Below, piece after piece: positions 45,958-62,557 of a stretch of DNA of 64,000 nt. Source of the DNA: Escherichia phage AV125. Location: sequence record OR352955.1; one strand, 5' to 3'. Within the stretch, counting starts at the first letter, position 1. Each line of letters opens with the position of its first letter. The position numbers were made by a program, and so were the translations under genes. The notes under the pieces were generated by a model. That model was not told the DNA's origin, made no database searches, and was given only the letters and a program-made list of their open reading frames with translations.

Positions 45958-46225
45958 CTTCGTTAGATTGCGTCTCAGACGCGTTAAATTCGGTTTCAGT
46001 ACAACTTGCTAGGTAACTTATATTTTGCATCACTACAACTACAGGTGTTTGAAGTTTATCTTCTAGCCCCGCAGCCACTTGAGCCAAGGCATTATCAATA
46101 TTTGATTTCCTAACGCCTGTTCCATGTCCTGTTGCCAAGTAAAGATTACCTTCCCCTTTTTGTGTAGCATTGGCAAAGTAGTAAACGTAATGTGCAAGGT
46201 AGTAATCACGGATTTCTTCAGTCAT
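45953..46225 (-). CDS. hypothetical protein (90 aa)
   Basis: ORF track; AGGAGA upstream on minus strand. Confidence 0.5.
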   Translation of the reverse strand: MTEEIRDYYLAHYVYYFANATQKGEGNLYLATGHGTGVRKSNIDNALAQVAAGLEDKLQTPVVVVMQNISYLASCTETEFNASETQSNEE

Positions 46226-46243
46226 TTTATTCTCCTAATAAGA

Positions 46244-46261
46244 AAGGGGCCGAAGCCCCTT
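46244..46261 (-). terminator. stem-loop (terminator/attenuator), copy 1 of repeated hairpin
   Basis: AAGGGGC-cgaa-GCCCCTT; identical at 58337-58354. Confidence 0.45.
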
Positions 46262-46268
46262 GAGTGGT

Positions 46269-47084
46269 TTATTTGTTTAAGTGGTCTTCGACCATTTTAA
46301 TGAAACCTTCATTGCTGAAGGCTGTTGCAGCTTTTTCTCGGTAAACAAAAACTCCACGATCTTCATAGAGAAGTGTTTCTTCGTAATTAACTCCAGGGTT
46401 AACTACAACCATTTTTGTACCCATACTAAGTGCAGGAAATAATTCCCAATTAAAATTGATAACTTGGTTTGAACATCCTACTACTACAACCAAATCTTGC
46501 ATGGTCAAAGTATCGAACAAGTGAGCCATATCTGCATACAAAGGTGCAGCCTCACCAAAAAATACAACATTAGGCTTCACCCAGTTATAATCATCTATGT
46601 TTATACTATTGTAACCAATATCTACCAGTGTTTTGTAATCTCCAGGATGCATACGGTAAACTACTTCAGGAAGATATCCGTGTACGTGAATAACAGAATC
46701 TCTGTCTACACCTGCTCGCTCTAGCAGATCATCAACGTTTGTTGTCAAGTTTACTATTTGGTTAGGATATTCCTTAAACCACTTTGCTATTTGAATATGT
46801 GCAGCATTAGGTTGTACATCTTTAAGCTCAACACGTCTTTTGTTATAAAATTCGTGTGTTTTGGCATACAAATCCATACCGTTCTCGTCTACACCACCGA
46901 CCACTGGAAGATCTGGAGATGTTCTAACACGATAACCTGCTTGGAAAGCTCCAATATCGCAGACCTCTTCTAAATCATATTCTTCCCATAAAGCACGACC
47001 ACTATCTGTGTCTGTTCTAAATGTTCGAATCCCACTGTCTGCACTTAAACCTGCACCGCTTACAAAAATCACTCGTCTTGGCAT
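46269..47084 (-). CDS. Sir2-like (sirtuin family) NAD-dependent protein
   Basis: 271 aa; N-terminal FVSGAGLSADSGIRTFR, central HG, FFGE match the sirtuin NAD-binding signature as remembered. Confidence 0.7.
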   Translation of the reverse strand: MPRRVIFVSGAGLSADSGIRTFRTDTDSGRALWEEYDLEEVCDIGAFQAGYRVRTSPDLPVVGGVDENGMDLYAKTHEFYNKRRVELKDVQPNAAHIQIAKWFKEYPNQIVNLTTNVDDLLERAGVDRDSVIHVHGYLPEVVYRMHPGDYKTLVDIGYNSINIDDYNWVKPNVVFFGEAAPLYADMAHLFDTLTMQDLVVVVGCSNQVINFNWELFPALSMGTKMVVVNPGVNYEETLLYEDRGVFVYREKAATAFSNEGFIKMVEDHLNK

Positions 47085-47554
47085 TCTTCCTCCTCAAATG
47101 GATCATAAGAATTGTACTCGTAAGTATCATCTTCTGAAAATTCTACTTCGAAATAAATATCAAACTCTGCAAACAGACGTAGGATGTTAGACATGCTGTA
47201 ATAATTATCGTAGGCAGATTCAGCTTCATAGTAAACATAAAGCCAATGGTTAGCCTTATCATCTTCCAAATATTTCCCGTCTGCATACGCATAGTCTGCA
47301 TATGCTTTACCTGCATCTTCCACAAGAGAACGATCAAGCAGAGTAGGAAATGGTTTCTCTTTTTCTTTTAGTTTGCTCACTAACCAATGTGCAATATCAT
47401 TCCATTCTGCATCCATACCACTAAAGCAACTTGCTTCTTCTCCAAAAGAAGCTTCTCCTAAATCGCCACTAATACGAATAACATTAGATGAATTATAGCC
47501 ACACGTTTCACAATCAGAGTAACTATTATGCACATTGACATTTACTTGAAACAT
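47069..47554 (-). CDS. highly acidic, aromatic-rich protein (161 aa)
   Basis: ORF track; C-terminus rich in D/E/Y/F. Confidence 0.5.
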   Translation of the reverse strand: MFQVNVNVHNSYSDCETCGYNSSNVIRISGDLGEASFGEEASCFSGMDAEWNDIAHWLVSKLKEKEKPFPTLLDRSLVEDAGKAYADYAYADGKYLEDDKANHWLYVYYEAESAYDNYYSMSNILRLFAEFDIYFEVEFSEDDTYEYNSYDPFEEEECQDE

Positions 47555-47574
47555 ATTCCCTCCTATAAAAGAAA

Positions 47575-47595
47575 AGCCCCCTGAAACAGGAGGCT
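47575..47595 (-). terminator. intrinsic terminator
   Basis: rc: AGCCTCCTG-ttt-CAGGGGGCT then TTTCTTTT. Confidence 0.5.
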
Positions 47596-47612
47596 TTGTT
47601 CAGATGTTGGCA

Positions 47613-48266
47613 CTATACCAGACTTTGTAGGTATTTGTCAAGGGCTTCTTGATCGCCTTGACAAACATAGCAACGGAAGTCTTGAGCCGAAGGTTGTTTA
47701 TTTTCATCCCAGTCCCAATAAACATTACCCTTATAACGTGAACCAGGAAACTCAAAAGAGGCTGTATGTGTAATGTATCCTGGGCCACCAGTGAAATCAC
47801 AGAATGAGAATTGGGGGTATGCCGCCTTTACTGCCTCAATAAACCAAGCTTTACGATCTAAAGCTTCATTGATGCTATACGCATGTCTCTCCATTTCTTC
47901 CCACGTTTTCCAGACACTTCTCTCATCAGGAGAAAAGACAAGCCATTCTGGAAGGTATAGAGTGTCATAGTAATCATCATATTCGATCTCGGAGGCGCAC
48001 GAAGCTGACTCCTCCAGTTTTGAGTAATCAAAAGCAGAATATACCCACCAACCATCTTCCAGTAACGCTTTGATAGGGACGAAGCCTTTATCAGCATATT
48101 GATCGAATTGTTTGACACGGTGGCTTGTGCAGTCTTCAAACTCACATTCTAAACGATATGCACCTTTTCGACGAGCCTCAAGACCGTGTGTACTGAAAAT
48201 AACAACACTTCCTTCACCATCATTACGATCTACTTGATAAGCAACCACTGGTTTTGAATTTGACAT
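47613..48266 (-). CDS. hypothetical protein (217 aa)
   Basis: ORF track; no motif recognised. Confidence 0.6.
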   Translation of the reverse strand: MSNSKPVVAYQVDRNDGEGSVVIFSTHGLEARRKGAYRLECEFEDCTSHRVKQFDQYADKGFVPIKALLEDGWWVYSAFDYSKLEESASCASEIEYDDYYDTLYLPEWLVFSPDERSVWKTWEEMERHAYSINEALDRKAWFIEAVKAAYPQFSFCDFTGGPGYITHTASFEFPGSRYKGNVYWDWDENKQPSAQDFRCYVCQGDQEALDKYLQSLV

Positions 48267-48949
48267 TATTTCTCCTTATCTAGAAGATTGTTAGACAAAA
48301 ACACTGCACGAGCAAAACCACGTGCGGTTAGTGATCTAAGTTGTTTTGTTTTTGCACTAGCTCCACCTAAGCTTTTCCAACCCCAGAAGCAGCCTATATG
48401 ATCTACTGGTTTCTTCACTGGTTGAACAAAACCATTGCCGTGCCAAATACAAGTTTTCTTTGTATACCCATCACGGGTAGGCATTTTAGGATGAAAGCTT
48501 CCTTCCTCTTCAAACAAATACCCACCATACTCATAAGGATCAAAGTAAAAATCGGGTTTACGCCATAAGGTTGAAAGTTTACCTACTGGGTTCTCAATCA
48601 TCCAAGGAACATTATATTTGTTACCCAAAGCTTCCACTACACGAATATTAGCTAAAGCTTCATCCAATTCCTCTGTGCTGCGTTCGTGTTTGCTACCACT
48701 ACCTGCTAACATAGTGCAAGGTGGAAATCCAAAAATAATATCGGGTTTAGGTATCCCATGATCTTCAGGGTTGAATGTAGAATCTATCCAGGTATTCACA
48801 TAGGTTATGTTTGGGTGCTCCATCCTAACCTCGTATTTACCGTGATCCCCTTCATCAGCGTTTACACAAAAACACTTGTGACCTGCTTCGGCATAACGTA
48901 ACACCATGATCCCAGATCCGTCAAACATAGACAAAACTGTTTTACTCAT
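48266..48949 (-). CDS. small DNA (cytosine-5)-methyltransferase-like protein
   Basis: Start ATG 48949; motif I SMFDGSG, motif IV FGFPPC, motif VI MIENPVG; short (227 aa), target-recognition region not evident. Confidence 0.55.
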   Translation of the reverse strand: MSKTVLSMFDGSGIMVLRYAEAGHKCFCVNADEGDHGKYEVRMEHPNITYVNTWIDSTFNPEDHGIPKPDIIFGFPPCTMLAGSGSKHERSTEELDEALANIRVVEALGNKYNVPWMIENPVGKLSTLWRKPDFYFDPYEYGGYLFEEEGSFHPKMPTRDGYTKKTCIWHGNGFVQPVKKPVDHIGCFWGWKSLGGASAKTKQLRSLTARGFARAVFLSNNLLDKEK

Positions 48950-49337
48950 TACCCCTCCATTCAAGACAAGCCATAACTTTACGCCAATCACTTTCTGTAA
49001 GAAAAATCTCGTTTGCTTTCTTCCACAAATCTAAATCGTGAAGGGTTGGAATACGATATGTTAGTTCACAGAATCTATGCTCTTCTTCTGTAATATAACC
49101 AAAATGCAGAGCCACATCGTGAAACCAACACCAACCATGCATCTCTCGAACAACATGGTCATGCTGAGACATTGTTTTATGCCGTAAACCTAACCAACAA
49201 GGAACAGATATTTTAGTAGTCTTTAATCTGTGATCAACAGTATTAGAGTATTCAATAATAGCTGTCAGTTTCAATCGTGCTTTTTCTAAATCCTCATGGG
49301 TCACTTTGAAATAACTTTCTGAAAGATATCCACACAT
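48942..49337 (-). CDS. hypothetical protein (131 aa), Cys/His/Trp-rich
   Basis: Start ATG 49337 after AAGGAGG; track start 49355 would overlap upstream gene. Confidence 0.5.
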   Translation of the reverse strand: MCGYLSESYFKVTHEDLEKARLKLTAIIEYSNTVDHRLKTTKISVPCWLGLRHKTMSQHDHVVREMHGWCWFHDVALHFGYITEEEHRFCELTYRIPTLHDLDLWKKANEIFLTESDWRKVMACLEWRGNE

Positions 49338-49338
49338 A

Positions 49339-50280
49339 TTAATAACCTCCTTCAAAAGGCTTAACTACATGTTGATTAGCTTTAAAACGTTCAACATAGT
49401 CATTTTCGCCCATGTTTTCATATAGCTTAGTAACAACATAAAAGTTTTCCCAAGCATATTCCCTAAACCAACCACTAGTGATGGATGTGCAGACTTTAGA
49501 TAAAGCCATTATAAAACTTTGCTTAGGGGTTGGACCTCCAATCTCTTCACCGAAAGGAATTTGTGAACGTTCCAAAGCCAAAACACACGCTTCTTCATAA
49601 ACACCTAACAGGCGCACATGTTTTGGTTGAGCAAAAAACTTTTCTTTGCTGGTCATAACTTCACTTCCATCTTTCATATAAGATTTATATGCTGGAGCAT
49701 CCATTAACGCGATTGCTTCATGGATAGAATCATGATCATAAACATACGGAACCTCGTCACCTTTAAAGAAGTCTTTACTTTTTACGTTTAAGTTCGGATG
49801 AGAGTAAGTGTATGTTTCTTTCTCACGCAACTCATAAATACTCTTAAGATTTTCTGGGATCTTTGCGCCCAGTGACCGCATGAAATGAATATCTTTCATA
49901 GTTTTAAAGAAATGAGGACTATCCTTTTTAAAACGATGACTCATTTTAAGAAGGTAGAGCACATCTAAAGGAGCAACAACATGTCCAGCGTAAGTTCGAC
50001 GAACATCATCAGAATCTTCACAATAACTAATCAAAGCTTCTGTGCTATCTCCTTGAGAAGCAATATCGTATTCCAAATGTGCACCAGTTATCATTTTGAC
50101 ATGGCCTTTGTTTCCTTTACGTTCTACAAGTTCAACAAACTCCTCTTGAGAGAACATTTTTGATAATTCTTCCCACTCTTGTTCTGTACACAGGTAATCT
50201 AAATCTACACAAGGGCGATACAAGTCTTTTCCCATGTCCATAGCATGAATTTGCAATGCACGGCTACCAATTAACACCAT
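49339..50280 (-). CDS. Pol-beta-superfamily nucleotidyltransferase-like protein
   Basis: 313 aa; N-terminal IGSRALQIHAMDMGKDLYRPCVDLDY fits hG[GS]x9-13DhD with downstream HLEYD acidic residue. Confidence 0.5.
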   Translation of the reverse strand: MVLIGSRALQIHAMDMGKDLYRPCVDLDYLCTEQEWEELSKMFSQEEFVELVERKGNKGHVKMITGAHLEYDIASQGDSTEALISYCEDSDDVRRTYAGHVVAPLDVLYLLKMSHRFKKDSPHFFKTMKDIHFMRSLGAKIPENLKSIYELREKETYTYSHPNLNVKSKDFFKGDEVPYVYDHDSIHEAIALMDAPAYKSYMKDGSEVMTSKEKFFAQPKHVRLLGVYEEACVLALERSQIPFGEEIGGPTPKQSFIMALSKVCTSITSGWFREYAWENFYVVTKLYENMGENDYVERFKANQHVVKPFEGGY

Positions 50281-50310
50281 AATATTTCTCCTCTATTGGT
50301 TGATAGGTTA

Positions 50311-50339
50311 AGTTTATCAAGCTTCCAGATTCCTGTCAA
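50311..50339 (-). promoter_or_regulatory. sigma70-type promoter (minus strand)
   Basis: rc reads TTGACA (50339-50334) - 17 nt - TAAACT (50316-50311). Confidence 0.45.
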
Positions 50340-50340
50340 T

Positions 50341-50362
50341 AAAAAACCCGCCGAAGCGGGTT
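50341..50362 (-). terminator. intrinsic terminator
   Basis: AACCCGC-cgaa-GCGGGTT with T-run on minus strand. Confidence 0.6.
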
Positions 50363-50370
50363 ATTATTTA

Positions 50371-50643
50371 CTAACACATTGAGGAAGAAGAGATCCAAAC
50401 ACCTCTTGTGGTTAAACCATTTTCATCCAACTCTACACCATAATCTTCACAAATGAAATCAATATAGTGATCTGCGGCTGGCGTTCCTGTAGGGTAATAA
50501 GTTTCTCCGTTACCGTAGTCACCTATCCAAGCTTGTTCCTGAAACTGTTCACAAAGTTCTTCAATTTCCTTACGAAACTTTCTTTGTGCTTGTTCCATCT
50601 CTTTAACTTTCTTTTTTATCAGCAGTTCGCCTTCAGACTCCAC
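50371..50643 (-). CDS. paralog family C member 1 (90 aa)
   Basis: C-terminus GVWISSSSMC. Confidence 0.5.
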   Translation of the reverse strand: MESEGELLIKKKVKEMEQAQRKFRKEIEELCEQFQEQAWIGDYGNGETYYPTGTPAADHYIDFICEDYGVELDENGLTTRGVWISSSSMC

Positions 50644-50652
50644 AATCTCTCC

Positions 50653-50871
50653 TTAACAGCTACTACTGTGCCAAACGCCTTGAGAATTAACGACGAAACC
50701 ATCATCACCTTCACCATAACAAGAAGAGGATTGCCAATCTTCAAAACAGATTGCGTCATCTTCTAAACTAAGACCAAAACCAGCATCTTCAGCTTCTTTT
50801 GTAAGTTCGTCCACTAAAGCCATAATAGCTTGGGCTTTTTCAGTTAATTCTTCAACATTACGATAACTCAT
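50653..50871 (-). CDS. paralog family C member 2 (72 aa)
   Basis: Start ATG 50871 (TAATG overlap); C-terminus GVWHSSSC. Confidence 0.45.
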   Translation of the reverse strand: MSYRNVEELTEKAQAIMALVDELTKEAEDAGFGLSLEDDAICFEDWQSSSCYGEGDDGFVVNSQGVWHSSSC

Positions 50872-51179
50872 TAGTATTTCTCCTCTGGTTGGAAAACGGA
50901 ACGACAGGCCCACATAGAAGCTTCTTTCAACTTAGTCTTTGCTATTGAAATTTGGTCAAGGCGGGTGGATATATTGGTAGACTCTTCCAAATCTTCACAA
51001 TCGTCCAGTTCAGCCCACAATTCAGACATTAGAGCATCAAAGATTAATCCTAATCGAACTTCAGCATCTTTAATAGCATTCACTTTACCAATTTTGTCAT
51101 CGGTATGCGGTTTATAACCTTTGATATCTTCGATTCCCACTTTACCTCCTATTAACAACTTAAAGAAGATGGATGCCAA
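50871..51179 (-). CDS. hypothetical protein (102 aa)
   Basis: ORF track. Confidence 0.5.
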   Translation of the reverse strand: MASIFFKLLIGGKVGIEDIKGYKPHTDDKIGKVNAIKDAEVRLGLIFDALMSELWAELDDCEDLEESTNISTRLDQISIAKTKLKEASMWACRSVFQPEEKY

Positions 51180-51349
51180 TTTGTTCCAGTGTTCTCATTT
51201 TCGTCTTCTGGATCATAATAACCACCCATCCCATATTCAGGGGAGAAACGGAAACCTTTACCAGTCTCATCTGCTAACTGCTCTGCTTCCGCTAAAGCCT
51301 CATAAGCTGCTTTTACGGCTTCTTCTACTGTTTTAAACTTGGTCGTCAT
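51152..51349 (-). CDS. paralog family C member 3 (65 aa)
   Basis: C-terminus NWHPSSLSC. Confidence 0.45.
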   Translation of the reverse strand: MTTKFKTVEEAVKAAYEALAEAEQLADETGKGFRFSPEYGMGGYYDPEDENENTGTNWHPSSLSC

Positions 51350-51623: not shown

Positions 51624-52114
51624 AAAACCTCCTCAATCTTGTAGTTTGACTCCATCTCCAACACATTTCCACGAACGTCTCTCCGAAGAAAGGCATAAGC
51701 TTTATTAGGTATTGTAGACTCATATTTAACCATATCTGGCACAGCAAAAGATACTACTACTCCTGCTGGGCTTCTGTCAAGAGCCTTATTAATATTTCTA
51801 AGGATATCGTTAGCCAAGATTTCTGCCAATTCTCCAAGAACAGTTTCTGTTATATCTTTATATCCCATTAAGTATTTGTTGATATCTTTCATCTCCGTAT
51901 TGTTCAGAGTATAGTCCAAAGGATAGAAATTCAAAGCGGAGTCACTTTTATGTGTCCACATGAAATGCACCCGATCCGAGCAGAATCGTAACCCTCTTTG
52001 AAGAATATCTTCTACAACAGGCAGAATTTCTTTTGTCACATCATTAACCATGTTGTAATCTAAGATTTCTGCCAAGTTTGTTCTTTGTTCACCACGTTTA
52101 CGTTTAGGAATCAC
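51602..52114 (-). CDS. hypothetical protein (170 aa)
   Basis: ORF track. Confidence 0.55.
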   Translation of the reverse strand: MIPKRKRGEQRTNLAEILDYNMVNDVTKEILPVVEDILQRGLRFCSDRVHFMWTHKSDSALNFYPLDYTLNNTEMKDINKYLMGYKDITETVLGELAEILANDILRNINKALDRSPAGVVVSFAVPDMVKYESTIPNKAYAFLRRDVRGNVLEMESNYKIEEVLWQSSDQ

Positions 52115-52685
52115 TTGTTATTGCCCTCATTACCAAAGGTCGTAGAAAATCGTAAATCTCTTGTTTTGTTTTCCCACGAATGTTTAAACAAGGAACATTA
52201 TTGGCTTTAGCTATCTTCCAAGCCGTAGCTGTTCCACCTTTTGCATCTCCATGTTTATCAGTATTAGCACAAGCCAACAAGAAACATGATGGAGCAGGAT
52301 TCTCCAAATCTCTACCTAACACTTGATGCACATTACGTTGGTGCAATTTTCTAGCACCCTGCTTAAGCTTTTCATAGGCTGGGTGAACATCTTTGATCCA
52401 TTGCACAGAGATAGCATAGTTCATTGTATCTGGTTTTGCAAGAACAATAACATCCCCTGGAATCTGATTACCTTTGAAATTTTCCCAAGGAACATAAATC
52501 TCCTTGTTAGTAGGATTTTCAGACTCTTGGACACCTGTTTCAAAAGCAGAATCACTACCCTCTGCCTTCCCAGACCTTAATTTAAACCCAAGGTTTGAAA
52601 GCCATTTCCCTATGCCTACCATCAAAGCCCACTCTTCTTCGGATATGTCTCTACTTCCAACTCCCGTATAGAACAGTTCTGCCAT
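52104..52685 (-). CDS. DprA/Smf-like Rossmann-fold protein
   Basis: Start ATG 52685; GVGSRDIS...LSNLGFKLRSGKAEGSDSAFETG resembles DprA GSR...SG.A.GiD core as remembered. Confidence 0.45.
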   Translation of the reverse strand: MAELFYTGVGSRDISEEEWALMVGIGKWLSNLGFKLRSGKAEGSDSAFETGVQESENPTNKEIYVPWENFKGNQIPGDVIVLAKPDTMNYAISVQWIKDVHPAYEKLKQGARKLHQRNVHQVLGRDLENPAPSCFLLACANTDKHGDAKGGTATAWKIAKANNVPCLNIRGKTKQEIYDFLRPLVMRAITSDS

Positions 52686-52692
52686 AATCACC

Positions 52693-53001
52693 TCAACAAG
52701 TAATTTCAAAAGGTGTATAGGGTTCCGTATTTCTCATGATCCAAGGACTGCTAGGATTGCTCGGATCATAAGGGCCAAAAGGTTTTATGGTAGGTTGTGT
52801 TTCTTTCTTCTGAATCTCTTCAAAAATACGACGAAGTTCAGAATATTCTTGATCCACCATAAGATTCGGTGCATCTGATTCTACAGCTTGCAGGTTATCT
52901 TCCTTAAGAACAATCTCACGAACAAGATTAACATCTTCTGTTTCTAAGATAACTTCTTTACGGATATTACCTACACTTTGAATAATTGTAATCTTATACA
53001 T
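52693..53001 (-). CDS. hypothetical protein (102 aa)
   Basis: ORF track. Confidence 0.5.
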   Translation of the reverse strand: MYKITIIQSVGNIRKEVILETEDVNLVREIVLKEDNLQAVESDAPNLMVDQEYSELRRIFEEIQKKETQPTIKPFGPYDPSNPSSPWIMRNTEPYTPFEITC

Positions 53002-53744
53002 TAATCCTCCTCAAGAGTTGAATAAAATTGAAGACCACCGTCCATATCGAAATAAGCAAATGTTAAGTTATTATTGAACACAGATCCAGTATCCATATAA
53101 ACACGATTCGCATTGATAATAGGTGTTTTTACATAAGAGTGTCCATGAAACACATAATCCACACCCATCACAACAGGAAGTTTCATTCCCTCTTTAGCAC
53201 AGTCTACCATATCTCTGTCCCACATAAGTGCTTCAGCAAAACGGTTTTCCTGTGTTTTTGTCATCTTCGAAATGTATTCTGGAATATCTGTTACAGGGAG
53301 ATATTCCAAAGAAGATGGATACCCACCATGAATAAACGCAAGTTTCATGCCTCTGTAGTTAACAATGAGAACAACAGGTAAATCTTCTGTCATCATTGCT
53401 AAGGCTGTAGCTCCTTCTTCACCACATTCTTCAAAGACCGTATATCCTCCATTTTGATACCAACACTCATAGTAGCTACGATCTCCTTCCAGCATACCTT
53501 TAATCATCATGTCTTCATGATTGCCACGAATAGCGTAGCGATTGTGTTTACGAGTAAATTCTAAAACACAACGAAAGTTTTGCTTTCCACGGTCAGTAAG
53601 ATCTCCTAGAGATACAACCACATCTGTATCTCGGATACCTAACTTTGCCTTTCCTTTTTCATACAAATTATAACAACCGTGTAGATCTCCAATTATAAAA
53701 AGATCTTGATCGCTTTTAACAGTAATTTCTCTGTGTATGATCAC
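53001..53744 (-). CDS. Ser/Thr protein phosphatase (calcineurin-like metallophosphoesterase)
   Basis: 247 aa; GDLHG, GDLTDRG, GNHE metallophosphatase motifs. Confidence 0.8.
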   Translation of the reverse strand: MIIHREITVKSDQDLFIIGDLHGCYNLYEKGKAKLGIRDTDVVVSLGDLTDRGKQNFRCVLEFTRKHNRYAIRGNHEDMMIKGMLEGDRSYYECWYQNGGYTVFEECGEEGATALAMMTEDLPVVLIVNYRGMKLAFIHGGYPSSLEYLPVTDIPEYISKMTKTQENRFAEALMWDRDMVDCAKEGMKLPVVMGVDYVFHGHSYVKTPIINANRVYMDTGSVFNNNLTFAYFDMDGGLQFYSTLEED

Positions 53745-55359: not shown

Positions 55360-55869
55360 TTAAACAAAATAAAATGGTTGAGAGAGGCCCAAACGATTCT
55401 TTGGGTCGTATACATACCAAGCGTATGCTGTCTTATCTGTTCCACCTGCAACAAACGAAGGCCGTTCTGAAAGGACTATAAGGTTTGTTGGTGGATTCTT
55501 TTGATGGAACTCTCGTCGTTTCTTTGACTCCAAGAAGCCCAACCGAAGAAGATAAATACAAACATCTGCCTCTTTTAAGCTCTTTTCCAAGAACTCCATT
55601 GCTAACTTAAATGGAGGATTTGTGATTATAATGTCGGGACGATTTTCCCATTCATGACTAAAATAATCTTTACCTTCTTCAAGTTCGCAATATTCTGAAC
55701 CTTCAGGAAAATGGCGATAAATCGCTTCAGCTTCACCTCTGCAAGGTTCTGCAAAAACCCAACCTTCTTCCTTTAGATTTTTGAAATCTATAACACTAAA
55801 CAAACTATTGATTGCTTTTTGCGGTGTCGGATAATAATCGCTCGTTGGGCGATCATAATCTAATGCCAT
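55360..55869 (-). CDS. small DNA N6-adenine methyltransferase-like protein
   Basis: 169 aa; NPPF catalytic motif (IIITNPPFKLA); size fits short phage Dam-type proteins. Confidence 0.5.
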   Translation of the reverse strand: MALDYDRPTSDYYPTPQKAINSLFSVIDFKNLKEEGWVFAEPCRGEAEAIYRHFPEGSEYCELEEGKDYFSHEWENRPDIIITNPPFKLAMEFLEKSLKEADVCIYLLRLGFLESKKRREFHQKNPPTNLIVLSERPSFVAGGTDKTAYAWYVYDPKNRLGLSQPFYFV

Positions 55870-59019: not shown

Positions 59020-59280
59020 TTACTCCGCAATTTGAGCCATGAGATCACGCAGTTCGGTAAAACCGCCTACGTATGTTACCTCCCCGTTCACTTCAGACAA
59101 AATTTGTGGAAATGTGCGTGGAGGAACTCCGGTAAGATCAACAACTGTTTTAGTCATTGATTCTAAATCGTAGTCTTGGTCAAGACTTAAATATTCAAAC
59201 TGTTTATTGCGCATGGTTAATAGTTGTTTTGACATTTCGCAAAATTGACAGTTAGGTTTACCAAAAATTACAAATTCCAT
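59020..59280 (-). CDS. glutaredoxin-like protein
   Basis: 86 aa; CQFC active site near N-terminus, PQI..G...GGF motif. Confidence 0.7.
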   Translation of the reverse strand: MEFVIFGKPNCQFCEMSKQLLTMRNKQFEYLSLDQDYDLESMTKTVVDLTGVPPRTFPQILSEVNGEVTYVGGFTELRDLMAQIAE

Positions 59281-60122
59281 TACCTCTCCTTATTAAGTAA
59301 TACTGCTAAAGACCGTTCAATACCTTTATTTAAATCTGATTTTGTAAGATAGTGACTGGTTACTAGTTGTGACTTCACCGGACGTGCTGCTGGAGCATTA
59401 TAGGTTGAAGCTGATACCGCCGATATCTTAACAGGTTCTGGCATCTGTGTCAAGATCTTTTCCGCAAACTCCGCCCAAGAAATAAGATGGCTTCCTGCAA
59501 AATGGTAAGTCTTTACAGATCTTGACCAACCTGTTTTTAATACTTCAAAAATAGCTTCTGCTAAATCTGGGGCATATGTTGGACAAGAGAACTGATCTGC
59601 AACGATAGTAAAATCACGTTGTCCATCATTATAGCGAGACAACATAGTTTTTAGAAAGTTATTTCCAAATTCACTATATACAGACGCTGTTCGAATAATA
59701 TATGCGTTCGGGTTAACTCCTCGCACCATTTTTTCACCGAGTTCTTTCGTATACCCATAATTGTTTATCGGGTTAGGTGTAGTATCTTCAAAAATAGGAT
59801 GAGAATAATTAAAAATATAGTCTGTAGAAATATGCACAAAATCAATTTTAAGTTTGCTGCACACTGCCGCAATATTTGCAGGGCCATAGGCATTAACAGC
59901 CAAAGCAGTAGCAAAATCATGTTCTGCTTTATCTACAGCCGTATAAGCAGCGCAATTAATAACACCATCTACATAATCTTCAATAATAGCGTTTCGCACA
60001 GCTTCAAAATTTGTAATATCTACACGTTCTTTAGGATAAATTAAAGACACATTTGAAGGAGCCACTTTACGTAAAGCTTGTCCCAGTTGTCCATTACCAC
60101 CCAATACCAGATATGTTAGCAT
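59280..60122 (-). CDS. rmlD: dTDP-4-dehydrorhamnose reductase
   Basis: 280 aa; N-terminal LVLGGNGQLGQAL, Rossmann GxxGxxG; fourth gene of rml cluster. Confidence 0.75.
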   Translation of the reverse strand: MLTYLVLGGNGQLGQALRKVAPSNVSLIYPKERVDITNFEAVRNAIIEDYVDGVINCAAYTAVDKAEHDFATALAVNAYGPANIAAVCSKLKIDFVHISTDYIFNYSHPIFEDTTPNPINNYGYTKELGEKMVRGVNPNAYIIRTASVYSEFGNNFLKTMLSRYNDGQRDFTIVADQFSCPTYAPDLAEAIFEVLKTGWSRSVKTYHFAGSHLISWAEFAEKILTQMPEPVKISAVSASTYNAPAARPVKSQLVTSHYLTKSDLNKGIERSLAVLLNKER

Positions 60123-60682
60123 ACACCCTCGCTACGTAACTGTTGAAAAGACTTAGCCATTGCATCTTTTGTTGATAAGATAGGTTTAAAATCTTCGTCA
60201 AAAATCATATCGAAGCCCCAATCAATCCCTATATCAGGATCATCCCAACGTAAACTTTGTTCGCTGGAAGGGTCGTATGGAGTTGTGCATTTGTATTCGA
60301 AGATAGCATCCATACTCAACACTATAAAACCATGTGCCAAACCAGGTGGAAGCCAGAACTGTGTATGGTGTCGTGCACGAAGAACAACACCGTCCCAAGC
60401 ACCGTAAGTAGGACTATCTTTACGTAGGTCTACAGCGAAATCCAATACTTCCCCACTTACACAACGAACAAGCTTACCTTGCGGATTATTTGTTTGAAAG
60501 TGCATTCCTCGCAAAACACCGAAGTTTGATTTAGACATGTTATCTTGAACGAAAGTTTGTCTACCAATGATATCTTCATATTTTTGTTCATTATATGTTT
60601 CTAAAAAGAAACCACGGTCATCTTTATAAACGTCTGGTTTGATAATTACCGCACCTTCAATTTTTGTTTTTTCTACTTTCAT
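60116..60682 (-). CDS. rmlC: dTDP-4-dehydrorhamnose 3,5-epimerase
   Basis: Start ATG 60682 after GGAGGGAAA (MKVEKTKIEGAVIIKPDVYKDDRGFFLETYN); FVQDNMSKSNFGVLRGMHFQ motif. Confidence 0.8.
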   Translation of the reverse strand: MKVEKTKIEGAVIIKPDVYKDDRGFFLETYNEQKYEDIIGRQTFVQDNMSKSNFGVLRGMHFQTNNPQGKLVRCVSGEVLDFAVDLRKDSPTYGAWDGVVLRARHHTQFWLPPGLAHGFIVLSMDAIFEYKCTTPYDPSSEQSLRWDDPDIGIDWGFDMIFDEDFKPILSTKDAMAKSFQQLRSEGVC

Positions 60683-60758
60683 TTTCCCTCCGCTAATTTG
60701 AGTAGGTATTGCCCGTACTCTGTTTTCTTCAGTGAGTTTCCATGGTAGACCAAAGTCT

Positions 60759-61556
60759 CTAAAGAAATCCACCCTTTTTGAAAGCAATTTCTTCCAGGCA
60801 CGCAATCTTCAATCCTTGACAGTTCTCAATAGTCTGCACGAATTGACCAGCTTCCATCAGACTGGCGTGTGTTCCTGTGTCAAGCCAAGTAAATCCTCGT
60901 CCGAGAACTTCTACTTGTAACTTCCTGTCTTCGAGGTAGCTGCGATTGATATCGGTGATCTCCAGTTCTCCACGCGCGGAAGGGGTTACTTCTAATGCAC
61001 GTTGAATAACAGAGTTATCATAGAAATATAAACCTGTGACAGCATAATCTGATTTAGGATTTTCAGGTTTCTCTTCAATAGAAATAACTTGACGATTACT
61101 CCCAAATTCAACCACACCGAATCGTTCAGGATCTTTCACCAAACACCCGAAGATACAAGCTCCGCCCCAAACATCTACCATCTCACTAGCGTTAATCAGT
61201 AGTTTACCAAAGCTTTGTCCGAAGAATAGGTTGTCACCTAAAATAAGAGCAACAGAGTCTTCTCCGATAAAATCTTTACCGATGATGAAAGCGTCCGCAA
61301 GACCTCGTGGCTCGGATTGGATTGCGTAAGTGAGTTTTATCCCAAACATAGACCCATCTCCAAGAAGATGCTCAAAGTCTTCCTGATCGCCTGGTGTGGT
61401 GATGATTAAGATATCCTTAATGTCAGCCAACATCAATACCGATAAGGGGTAGTAGATCATGGGTTTGTCATACACAGGGAGCAATTGCTTGCTCACACTG
61501 CGTGTTACCGGATGAAGGCGGGTTCCACTTCCTCCCGCCAAAATAATACCTTTCAT
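60759..61556 (-). CDS. rmlA: glucose-1-phosphate thymidylyltransferase
   Basis: 265 aa; [36 protein letters not shown]...GELEITD nearly collinear with E. coli RmlA as remembered. Confidence 0.9.
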
Positions 61557-61564
61557 AACCCTCC

Positions 61565-62557
61565 TTAAATCTTCTTACTCCACCATTGAGGGTTGTTTAA
61601 GTACCATTCAATCGTTGAGTAGAGATCTTGTTCAAATGTAGAGTTTGCACTCCAACCCAGTTCAGACTCTATTTTAGAAGGATTGATTTCATAACGCAAG
61701 TCATGTCCTTTACGATCTTCAACAAAAGTTATCAAGTTGGAAGAAGGGTAGGTTCCTGCTTCTGGATGTACAGCATCCATGTAGTCACAAACCATATAGA
61801 TGATCTCCATATTGGTTTTGGGATTACGTGTTCCAACATTATACGTTTGACCTGGTTCTCCACCTGTTGCCACTTGAAGAATAGCTCGCGCATGATCCTC
61901 AACAAAAAGCCAGTCTCGCACCTGATCGCCTTTACCATACACCGGAATCTCTTTATTCGTCAAGATACTTGTGATGATTTTTGGGATCAGCTTTTCTGGA
62001 TGTTGATAAGGTCCAAAGTTATTGGAGCAGTTGGTTATCACAACAGGTAAACCGTAGGTACGGTACCAAGCTTTCACAAGATGGTCAGATGCTGCCTTAG
62101 ACGCACTGTACGGGCTTGAAGGGGCATAAGCTGTCTCTTCGGTAAAGGGAACGCCAGAGTCTGCCATATCGCCGTACACTTCGTCTGTGGAGACATGTAC
62201 GAACATCTTAAGTTTATTTTTTGGGAGGAGCCTTGCAGCTTCCAATAAATTGTATGTACCAATAATATTGGAGTCGATGAAAACTCGTGGATTCTTGATA
62301 GAATTATCCACATGACTCTCTGCCGCTAAGTGAATGATGAAATCGGGATTGCACTCTACTACTAAACTTTTGACCTGGGTTTCGTTTGCCAAATCTGTTA
62401 TGCTTAGTTTAACGTGAGTGATATCGCCTACATTCTCAATATCTGCTGCATAGCCCATCTTATCAACGACAAAAACTTCGTTATTGGGATCTTGACAAAG
62501 AGAGCGCACCACGGCACTCCCAATAAAACCAAGACCACCTGTTACCAGATAGCGCAT
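61565..62557 (-). CDS. rmlB: dTDP-glucose 4,6-dehydratase
   Basis: 330 aa; [33 protein letters not shown] (YxxxK). Confidence 0.85.

Follow-up and report, generated by a model that had tools for sequence, protein, structure and literature searches.

Sirtuin, methyltransferase and nucleotidyltransferase genes in an early region of a Phapecoctavirus are probably a mosaic of independent functions

What does it mean when a phage carries, within 4 kb, genes for a Sir2-like protein, a strongly acidic protein, a C5 cytosine DNA methyltransferase (MTase) and a nucleotidyltransferase (NTase)? The question is raised by positions 46269–50280 of a 64,000-nucleotide stretch of Escherichia phage AV125 (record OR352955.1; this whole stretch is called the window below). 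A reading made from the sequence alone had proposed that these four genes act jointly, as a module centered on nicotinamide adenine dinucleotide (NAD) that serves counter-defense or inter-phage exclusion. Our analysis does not support a single module. Instead, we put the probability at about two in three that the interval is an early accessory region of Phapecoctavirus, a mosaic of independent host-takeover and counter-defense genes and not one machine. Only the NTase and a set of small proteins encoded upstream of it stay partnered across distant phages, and we tentatively propose that these form a two-part system of their own.

The DNA is indeed that of a phage. The window belongs to the genome of an E. 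coli phage of the genus Phapecoctavirus (phAPEC8-like; Stephanstirmvirinae), and positions 46000–50400 (4.4 kb) are 99.5% identical over their full length to Schickermooser (vB_EcoM), ESCO13, phAPEC8 variants and many other Phapecoctavirus records in GenBank. Queried with this segment, 126 phage records match, 57 of which cover at least 80% of it. Annotated relatives name the genes “Sir2 (NAD-dependent deacetylase),” “DNA methyltransferase/Dcm” and “hypothetical protein”; dozens of GenBank records already contain this sequence, with the sirtuin and the methylase annotated. The four open reading frames (ORFs) picked out by the sequence-only reading all lie where it placed them, on the minus strand, as do all other features given coordinates here. 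Its four domain calls stand, and its inventory missed two further genes. The six co-directional genes encode, in order, the NTase (313 residues; 49339–50280), a 131-residue protein (48942–49337; phrog_16551; start codon read directly), the MTase (48266–48949), a 217-residue protein (47613–48266; phrog_8514), the acidic protein (161 residues; 47069–47554) and the Sir2 protein (271 residues; 46269–47084).

Terminator-like hairpins and a promoter-like site place the NTase and the MTase in one transcription unit and the acidic protein and the sirtuin in another. Directly before the NTase gene lies a sigma-70-like promoter, TTGACA-17-TAAACT with an upstream TG (50311–50339), which matches the consensus at 10 of 12 positions and is a consensus match only. 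An intrinsic-terminator-like hairpin, with a 7-bp stem of which five pairs are G-C and a T run behind it, occupies 50345–50362. A strong terminator-like hairpin with an 11-bp stem (47573–47597) ends the unit that runs from the NTase to the 217-residue protein, and a third hairpin follows the sirtuin gene (46244–46261). ARNOLD terminators annotated in Schickermooser coincide with all three (50362–50345, 47597–47573 and 46261–46244); our scan found nine hairpin-plus-T-run sites against 3.4 ± 1.6 expected from shuffled sequence. The best promoter-like match of the region, TTGACA-18-TATAGT with an upstream TG (47612–47641; 11 of 12 positions), precedes the hairpin at 47573–47597, so that this hairpin would fall in the 5′ leader of the acidic-protein/sirtuin transcript. 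With the genes upstream of the interval included, we picture three units: a first (∼51349–50371) that would express three small acidic proteins with W-x-SS-x-C termini and, inserted among them, a Vs.4/Acb2 sponge; a second, bounded by the promoter-like site (50339) and the terminator (47597), for the NTase, the 131-residue protein, the Dcm-type MTase and the 217-residue protein; and a third, ending at the terminator at 46261, for the acidic protein and the sirtuin.

The gene families are also distributed differently among phages. Across 50,697 phage records, the sirtuin family occurs in 983 (T5-like phages, rV5-like phages, 143-kb Klebsiella phages, KVP40-like phages and Serratia phage BF), the NTase family in 734 (Mosigvirus/RB69 and other T4-like phages, Otagovirus, and phages of Acinetobacter, Aeromonas, Gordonia and Streptomyces) and the MTase family in 1496, mostly ∼45- to 51-kb siphoviruses of Klebsiella and E. 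coli. The acidic protein (131 records), the 217-residue protein (158) and the 131-residue protein (128) are essentially confined to Stephanstirmvirinae. At least 224 of the NTase records come from phages of Acinetobacter, Aeromonas, Pseudomonas, Gordonia and Streptomyces, and each of these host groups contributes at most six sirtuin records. Individual genomes show the parts being gained and lost one at a time. Phage phi92, of the same subfamily, has no NTase and carries an unrelated 329-residue MTase; Klebsiella phage phi1_175008 keeps the order NTase, 131-residue protein, MTase, 217-residue protein and sirtuin, with the acidic protein absent; and RB69, phiPsa381 and Konradin have the NTase with neither sirtuin nor MTase within 4 kb. 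The same picture emerges from an independent sample of loci (±10 kb) on the metagenomic viral contigs of IMG/VR. The NTase is present in 4 of 29 sirtuin-anchored loci, the MTase in 5 and the acidic protein in 5; conversely, 80 NTase-anchored loci hold the sirtuin in 8 cases and the MTase in 9. Across lineages, then, sirtuin, MTase and NTase genes are not linked. That they lie together is real, but this reflects inheritance in a single phage lineage, outside which the genes do not occur together. Thus, split transcription, different distributions, independent gain and loss, and the IMG/VR sample together argue that the interval is not one module.

The association that does persist links the NTase to small acidic proteins encoded upstream of it. 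We scanned all stop-delimited frames of at least 40 residues for the terminus W-x(1-3)-S-[SD]-x(0-2)-C-stop, and the 64-kb window holds exactly three such ORFs, all upstream of the NTase and all members of phrog_899. The first of these tandem paralogs (51152–51349; E = 1e-12) has 65 residues and ends in NWHPSSLSC-stop, its stop codon and the downstream ribosome-binding site having been read directly from the sequence. The second (50653–50871; E = 7e-6) has 72 residues, with an internal DWQSSSCYGE and a terminal VWHSSSC-stop, and the third (50371–50643; E = 5e-14) has 90 residues and ends in GVWISSSSMC-stop. In 72 of the 80 NTase-anchored loci, where NTase identity ranges from 41 to 77%, at least one motif ORF lies on the same strand in the 3 kb upstream, and the NTase is typically preceded by one to five of them in tandem. 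In all, the upstream zones of the 80 loci contain 193 motif ORFs, against 9 elsewhere in the ±10 kb, an enrichment of ∼260-fold per strand-kilobase. As a control, 25 sirtuin loci that lack the NTase (471 kb) contain a single one. The 175 distinct motif proteins have a median length of 82 residues and a net charge of −0.10 per residue; 134 end in the register W-x-S-S-S-x-x-C and 40 in W-x-x-S-S-C. At loci L007, L008, L009, L011 and L042–L125, tandem phrog_899 paralogs nearly always stand immediately before the NTase.

This coupling extends over very different phages. The IMG/VR contigs that carry the NTase and motif ORFs run from ∼98 kb, through T4-like sizes of 160–175 kb, to jumbo sizes of 355–389 kb, and the same layout appears among annotated coding sequences of RB69 (ORF136c and ORF137c before ORF134c), phiPsa381, Acinetobacter phage Konradin and phi1_175008. 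Phage phi92, which is without the NTase, has no motif ORFs. By tblastn, the 90-residue protein of the window is found in 406 phage records, and in each host genus its numbers are close to those of the NTase: 250 versus 259 for Escherichia, 34 versus 35 for Klebsiella, 34 versus 36 for Enterobacter and 18 versus 18 for Shigella. The pair is, moreover, a virus-only one. In a survey of one genome each from 185,579 bacterial and archaeal species, the NTase family appeared on just four contigs, each from a metagenome-assembled genome and each with motif ORFs as well. The small proteins have no significant match in PDB or Pfam, and the pairing is described in no paper of the literature that we searched, which likewise holds no mention of DUF7275, DUF7277, PF23940, PF23942 or RB69ORF134c. 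The 131-residue protein was considered as another partner of the NTase and ruled out; it is present in phi92-like phages that have no NTase (phi92 gp044).

What might the NTase do with its small partners? The call of a GS...DxD nucleotidyltransferase has held up: G5, S6, D26, D28 and a third carboxylate, E70, are invariant in 34 family sequences. The protein, which consists of DUF7277 and DUF7275 with a highly conserved helical C-terminal domain, is confidently predicted to adopt the Pol-beta NTase fold; among solved structures, the tRNA-NTase toxins MenT1, MenT3 and MenT4 come closest to it. Its best structural neighbors are thus known tRNA and antibiotic NTases, a likeness that did not show in sequence. 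Sequence and profile searches against PDB sequences found nothing; a Pfam scan of the 34 family members at E = 1 gave no match to AbiEii (PF08843/DUF1814), NTP_transf_2, RlaP or HD; and neither CCA-adding enzymes nor RlaP match the NTase in sequence. An HD domain in the C terminus, suggested by His/Asp-rich conservation, was not confirmed. When the NTase model was searched against the predicted viral protein structures of BFVD, it found only DUF7275/DUF7277 proteins, together with weak matches to giant-virus poly(A) polymerases. DUF7275 proteins are also present in giant eukaryotic viruses (Sylvanvirus, Satyrvirus), where they are longer, at 508–571 residues (BFVD, Foldseek). The short NTases of actinophages (locus L126, Gordonia phage Bachita; locus L127, Streptomyces phage Blueeyedbeauty) adjoin either a cluster of tRNA genes or a gene for RNA ligase, and in an Acidovorax-phage-like contig the genes for Rnl1, polynucleotide kinase (PNK) and phosphoesterase lie 3–6 kb upstream of the NTase.

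It is useful to contrast this NTase with two kinds of enzyme that it resembles. Phage MNT-like NTases, which make cyclic dinucleotides, have been reported to adjoin Dam/Dcm and NAD-synthesis genes and to act against TIR-STING (Ho et al. 2022; bioRxiv 10.1101/2022.06.09.495361). The window NTase is like them in being a phage enzyme of the Pol-beta superfamily near a cytosine MTase in an accessory region. However, it is larger, has an extra DUF7275 domain and lacks their defining motif; the cyclic-dinucleotide NTase pattern GS-x-AY[GAN]T-x4-SDxD is absent from all six frames of the window, even when loosened.

The second comparison is with MenT toxins, which act on tRNA 3′ ends and whose genes follow those of small antitoxins, such as the 68-residue MenA1 (PMC7450476). 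The NTase could by this analogy be a toxin that shuts off host translation or excludes other phages, with the small upstream proteins, whose placement is strongly conserved, as its antitoxins. Besides the fold and the gene layout, the spacing of conserved residues invites this explanation. K112 and D130 are invariant in the 34 sequences, the Ser-Lys distance is 106 residues compared with 111 in MenT3 and 104 in MenT4, and the Lys-Asp distance is 18 compared with 22 and 15, respectively; these are comparisons of spacing along the sequence. Against it, a gap of 19 residues separates Gly-Ser from D-x-D, in contrast to the S-x-D motif of MenT, and no sequence relationship to MenT/AbiEii proteins (DUF1814) was detected. 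Because the DUF1814 test was negative, the likeness to MenA/MenT is one of layout and possible mechanism, not of membership. The family is also nearly absent from bacterial genomes, unlike toxin–antitoxin systems. Finally, one to five paralogous “antitoxins” with an invariant C-terminal motif (W-x-SSS-x-x-C) would be atypical, and the small upstream proteins are unrelated to known MenA or AbiEi proteins. We consider a MenT-like toxin an unlikely account of this gene pair.

Our preferred view of the NTase and the W-x-SSS-x-x-C (or W-x-x-S-S-C) proteins, held tentatively and at somewhat less than even odds, is that they constitute a virus-only two-part system in host takeover or counter-defense, in which either the tails are nucleotidylated or the small proteins control the NTase. 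As regulators, the small proteins would occupy the position of upstream antitoxins, as in MenA/MenT; as substrates, they would be nucleotidylated at the Ser-rich tail. Such a modification could activate the Ser-rich, Cys-terminal tail for a crosslink or for a protein–nucleotide conjugate. The other likely substrate of the NTase would be an RNA 3′ end. If the pair does serve host takeover or counter-defense, its place among the anti-defense genes Acb2 and Dcm would be explained.

The Sir2 protein is best understood apart from the NTase. Its identification as Sir2-like was correct. The only Pfam match is to SIR2 (PF02146; 80.5 bits against a cut-off of 24), and the best PDB match is E. coli CobB (1s5p; E = 8e-19). 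In the alignment with CobB, the GAGLS motif (G10-A-G-L-S), TTN116-V-D118, H135-G, FFGE and Y80-x-x-R83 are all in place, so that both the catalytic His and the catalytic Asn are present; GAGLS, N116, D118 and H135 are invariant in six phage homologs. Other features set the protein apart from CobB. The zinc-binding Cys tetrad of CobB is missing, both here and in all of the aligned homologs from phi92, T5-like, rV5-like and Klebsiella phages; the sirtuins of Stephanstirmvirinae and T5-like phages share an extra insertion of ∼26 residues; and scores fall far under the NCBIfam CobB equivalog cut-offs (e.g., 106 bits versus 243). Sequence identity is 47–60% to rV5-like and T5-like sirtuins and 37% to the sirtuin of Serratia phage BF, at near-full coverage. 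Scans of the six interval proteins with PADLOC and NCBIfam found no defense-type Sir2 or NTase; for the sirtuin, the lone PADLOC hit was a nonsignificant match to PDC-S65 (E = 0.017, over 37 residues). The protein stands alone, with no HerA, SLOG, TIR or Argonaute neighbors. Judged by its sequence, it is a canonical CobB-like sirtuin and not one of the defense type.

What would such a sirtuin act on? In class III sirtuins (Sirt5, CobB), the Y-x-x-R motif recognizes anionic acyl groups. The window protein resembles these enzymes in GAGxS, TxNxD, HG, FGE and Y-x-x-R, and it differs in the absence of the zinc cysteines. The retained Y-x-x-R would fit an anionic acceptor, whether a 2′-phosphate or succinyl-lysine. 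The window protein belongs to a clade of phage sirtuins whose other members neighbor genes for RNA ligase, kinase, cREC, phosphoesterase, MazG or haloacid dehalogenase (HAD) proteins and which has been predicted to act in RNA repair as KptA-like enzymes that remove 2′-phosphates (Iyer, Burroughs, Anantharaman, Aravind 2022; PMC9503650, section 3.7.3). Our sirtuin-anchored IMG/VR loci agree with that context: Rnl1, PNK and phosphoesterase genes occur in 11–12 of the 29, and a HAD phosphatase gene in 3. DrSchubert clusters RNA ligase, cREC, Sir2, PNK and phosphoesterase genes, and Iguana clusters those for RNA ligase, cREC, ATPase, Sir2, DNA ligase and MazG. The window sirtuin differs from its relatives in the RNA-repair clade in having moved away from the Rnl1/PseT cluster and in being paired with a lineage-specific acidic protein. 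From the gene context in other phages and the Y-x-x-R motif, we suggest that it would transfer ADP-ribose from NAD+ to an anionic acceptor. The leading candidate, still a tentative one, would be the 2′-phosphate of an RNA end in RNA repair; succinyl- or acetyl-lysine, possible as well, would come next, and a plain NADase seems improbable.

A wider role in RNA repair can be imagined, in which both the sirtuin and the NTase mend RNA (tRNA), in trans with Rnl1, PseT and a calcineurin-like phosphoesterase, after damage by host anticodon nucleases or by toxins that attack tRNA 3′ ends. The Phapecoctavirus genome does encode Rnl1, PseT, MazG and DNA ligase, as a block ∼27 kb from the sirtuin gene, and a calcineurin-like phosphoesterase lies at 53001–53744. 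The nearest NTase structures act on tRNA 3′ ends, and the NTase homologs of loci L093 and L118 and of phages Blueeyedbeauty and Bachita lie near RNA ligase, PNK or tRNA genes. However, Rnl1 is found within 10 kb in only 2 of the 80 NTase loci, the distance to the phage’s own repair cluster is large, the NTase has no sequence match to CCA-adding enzymes or RlaP, and the small upstream proteins would be left unexplained. This shared role, like that of a toxin, is unlikely. Both the phosphoesterase gene and a gene for a “DprA-like” protein without a Pfam match (52104–52709) lie 5–7 kb upstream of the sirtuin gene; in rV5-like phages, a phosphoesterase gene stands beside the sirtuin gene in the RNA-repair cluster.

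The acidic protein is as acidic as first noted: its net charge of −27 is the most extreme among the 103 window ORFs of at least 80 residues. Its four cysteines, C15-x-x-C18, C43 and C158, are invariant, in phi92 gp039 as elsewhere. The best structural model (predicted local distance difference test score of 79) has a disordered acidic tail, and its fold matches no solved structure, known DNA mimics included. The family is tiny, with 16 representatives among 1.84 billion proteins. Charge aside, nothing favors the idea that the protein mimics DNA. Like the anti-restriction DNA mimics Ocr and ArdA, it is small, early-expressed and very acidic; unlike them, it has no fold match and carries a conserved four-cysteine site. 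An exhaustive profile search matched residues 12–79 (∼47318–47521), a beta-rich segment with CxxCxG, to 8–10 repeated stretches in two long proteins of 900 and 2171 residues. This N-terminal segment may be a repeatable zinc-knuckle-like unit.

Could the acidic protein and the sirtuin be a dedicated pair, with the former inhibiting the sirtuin, serving as its substrate or providing a zinc module in trans? Their genes share 16 nt, the 3′ end of the acidic gene running over the start of the sirtuin gene in a short operon, and they are adjacent in Phapecoctavirus and Justusliebigvirus. A sirtuin without its four zinc cysteines next to a protein with four invariant ones is, moreover, a suggestive combination. 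However, no acidic protein accompanies the sirtuin in ∼850 other phage records or in the related phi1_175008, and a distant homolog of the acidic protein is encoded in T4-like surroundings that include no sirtuin. The two also evolve separately. Relative to their phi92 counterparts, the sirtuin has 96% identity and the acidic protein 37%; compared with MirsaeidiM_Esher1, another Phapecoctavirus, the acidic protein is 97% identical and the adjoining sirtuin 68%. A mosaic breakpoint falls between the two genes (locus L002; MirsaeidiM_Esher1). A role as sirtuin partner or as DNA mimic is possible, and we rate it as rather improbable, below both the toxin and the shared role in RNA repair.

The MTase is the gene of the interval with the clearest functional precedent. 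That it is a short C5 cytosine MTase was rightly recognized and can be narrowed to the Dcm type. Its true start is the ATG at 48949, which follows a GGAGGGG ribosome-binding site, and translation from there gives 227 residues, not 241. The protein (phrog_757, E = 1e-84) has the motifs FDGSG (I), PPC78 (IV) and E119-NP (VI), and M.HaeIII and the PADLOC models MTase_II and DruM can be aligned to its N-terminal half. A Pfam scan that included DNA_methylase (PF00145) gave no match at E ≤ 0.1. In phage K42, a KarlJaspers-like member of the Drexlerviridae, a 711-bp dcm gene yields 5-methylcytosine at CCWGG, with C82, E128, K175 and K176 as key residues of its product, and the short phage Dcm of K42 and KarlJaspers is a trigger of retron Ec86 (bioRxiv 10.1101/2023.08.16.553469). 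Our comparison used as a proxy for K42 itself the 236-residue (711-bp) homolog of Warwickvirus JLBYU01, in which the four key residues stand at exactly the K42 positions. The window MTase is identical to this protein in 118 of 241 alignment columns (∼49%) and keeps all four residues, as C78, E119, K165 and K166. It therefore belongs to a short phage Dcm family with functional precedent, and it is similar in size to K42 Dcm (227 versus 236 residues); its specificity is predicted only.

The site content of the window is in keeping with this assignment. CCWGG and GATC are not avoided, with 96 sites against 84 expected (observed/expected = 1.15) and 339 against 308 (1.10), respectively. By contrast, GGCC is depleted (27 against 85 expected; 0.32), as is CCGG (27 against 78; 0.35), and CTGCAG is missing altogether (0 against 10). 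The unavoided CCWGG and GATC sites are consistent with activity of the phage Dcm, without constituting proof. To judge from its homolog, the enzyme would methylate phage DNA, probably at CCWGG, as a protection against restriction.

A second gene of a known counter-defense family lies ∼600 bp upstream of the NTase, beyond the interval. The ORF at 50871–51140, which begins with GTG after an AGGAGG ribosome-binding site, matches the Acb2/Tad1 hairpin family PF24729 (E = 1.3e-19; 70.5 bits against a cut-off of 27) and T4 Vs.4 in PDB 7uq2 (E = 1.9e-42 over the 87 residues 5–91). T4 Vs.4/Acb2 is a known sponge for the cyclic oligonucleotides of the cyclic-oligonucleotide-based antiphage signaling system (CBASS). 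Its close homolog here would soak up CBASS signals in the same way. The gene splits the array of three small acidic paralogs. None of the other sampled loci of the Stephanstirmvirinae-like kind has it, so that it is probably a recent insertion from a T4-like phage. In T4-like loci, a Vs.4 homolog lies 5–7 kb from the NTase. With a Dcm family for which experimental evidence exists and an Acb2 homolog, the counter-defense flavor that had been sensed in this neighborhood is real, even though the single module is not.

As for that module, it is very unlikely: the four co-directional genes, their conserved order in Stephanstirmvirinae-like phages, the MNT-like NTases of another family that adjoin Dam/Dcm and NAD-synthesis genes, the nearby Acb2 sponge and the intact NAD-binding and catalytic residues of the sirtuin all invite it, but the family distributions already largely refute it, the genes fall into two transcription units, each part can be lost independently, the sirtuin is canonical and matches no defense Sir2 model, and the NTase lacks the cyclic-dinucleotide motif.

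Several observations weigh against a mosaic of independent genes as we have described it. Loci L046–L048 and L055 keep the order NTase, MTase, 217-residue protein and sirtuin at ∼50% identity, which makes the block old in that deeper lineage; judged by synteny alone, some functional tie within the block is possible. The partnership between the NTase and the small proteins has gaps, in that 8 of the 80 NTase loci are without small ORFs, as are the shorter actinophage homologs, and in the window a terminator and a promoter stand between the small genes and the NTase. The test for an RNA-repair neighborhood is negative for the sirtuin in this window, Rnl1 and PseT being ∼27 kb off. Finally, the lack of CCWGG and GATC avoidance could be due to the Dcm and Dam of the host alone.

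Other features of the window and its relatives deserve brief mention. Four ORFs at 59280–62557 correspond, according to the annotation of Schickermooser, to rmlA, rmlB, rmlC and rmlD of the dTDP-rhamnose pathway, an unusual cargo for a phage. A 169-residue ORF (55360–55869) bears the RefSeq label “DNA methyltransferase,” yet it has no Pfam match at E = 0.01. The window contains no tRNA genes, and Rfam and repeat scans of 45–51.5 kb returned nothing meaningful, the lone match being to rsmX, at 25.9 bits against 56, on a terminator hairpin. Genomes at least 97% identical to this one have been deposited as phages of Campylobacter, Acinetobacter, Klebsiella and Pseudomonas, host labels that look doubtful.

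The view of this region as a mosaic has implications for several groups of genes. First, the region holds at least two counter-defense genes of known families, the Dcm and the Acb2/Vs.4 homolog. Since anti-defense genes are reported to lie in clusters on phage genomes, the neighbors of these two are reasonable candidates for new anti-defense functions. Second, a zinc-less CobB-like sirtuin is present in ∼1000 phage genomes, and its Y-x-x-R motif, together with the RNA-ligase neighborhood, suggests a specific predicted chemistry. Finally, the pairing of the NTase with small W-x-SS-x-C proteins is carried by hundreds of large virulent phages, including T4-like, jumbo, Otagovirus-like and Stephanstirmvirinae phages, and it sits in fast-changing early regions of their diverse genomes. 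It thereby offers a hypothesis, concrete enough to be tested, on what a large set of phage genes without an assigned function may do.

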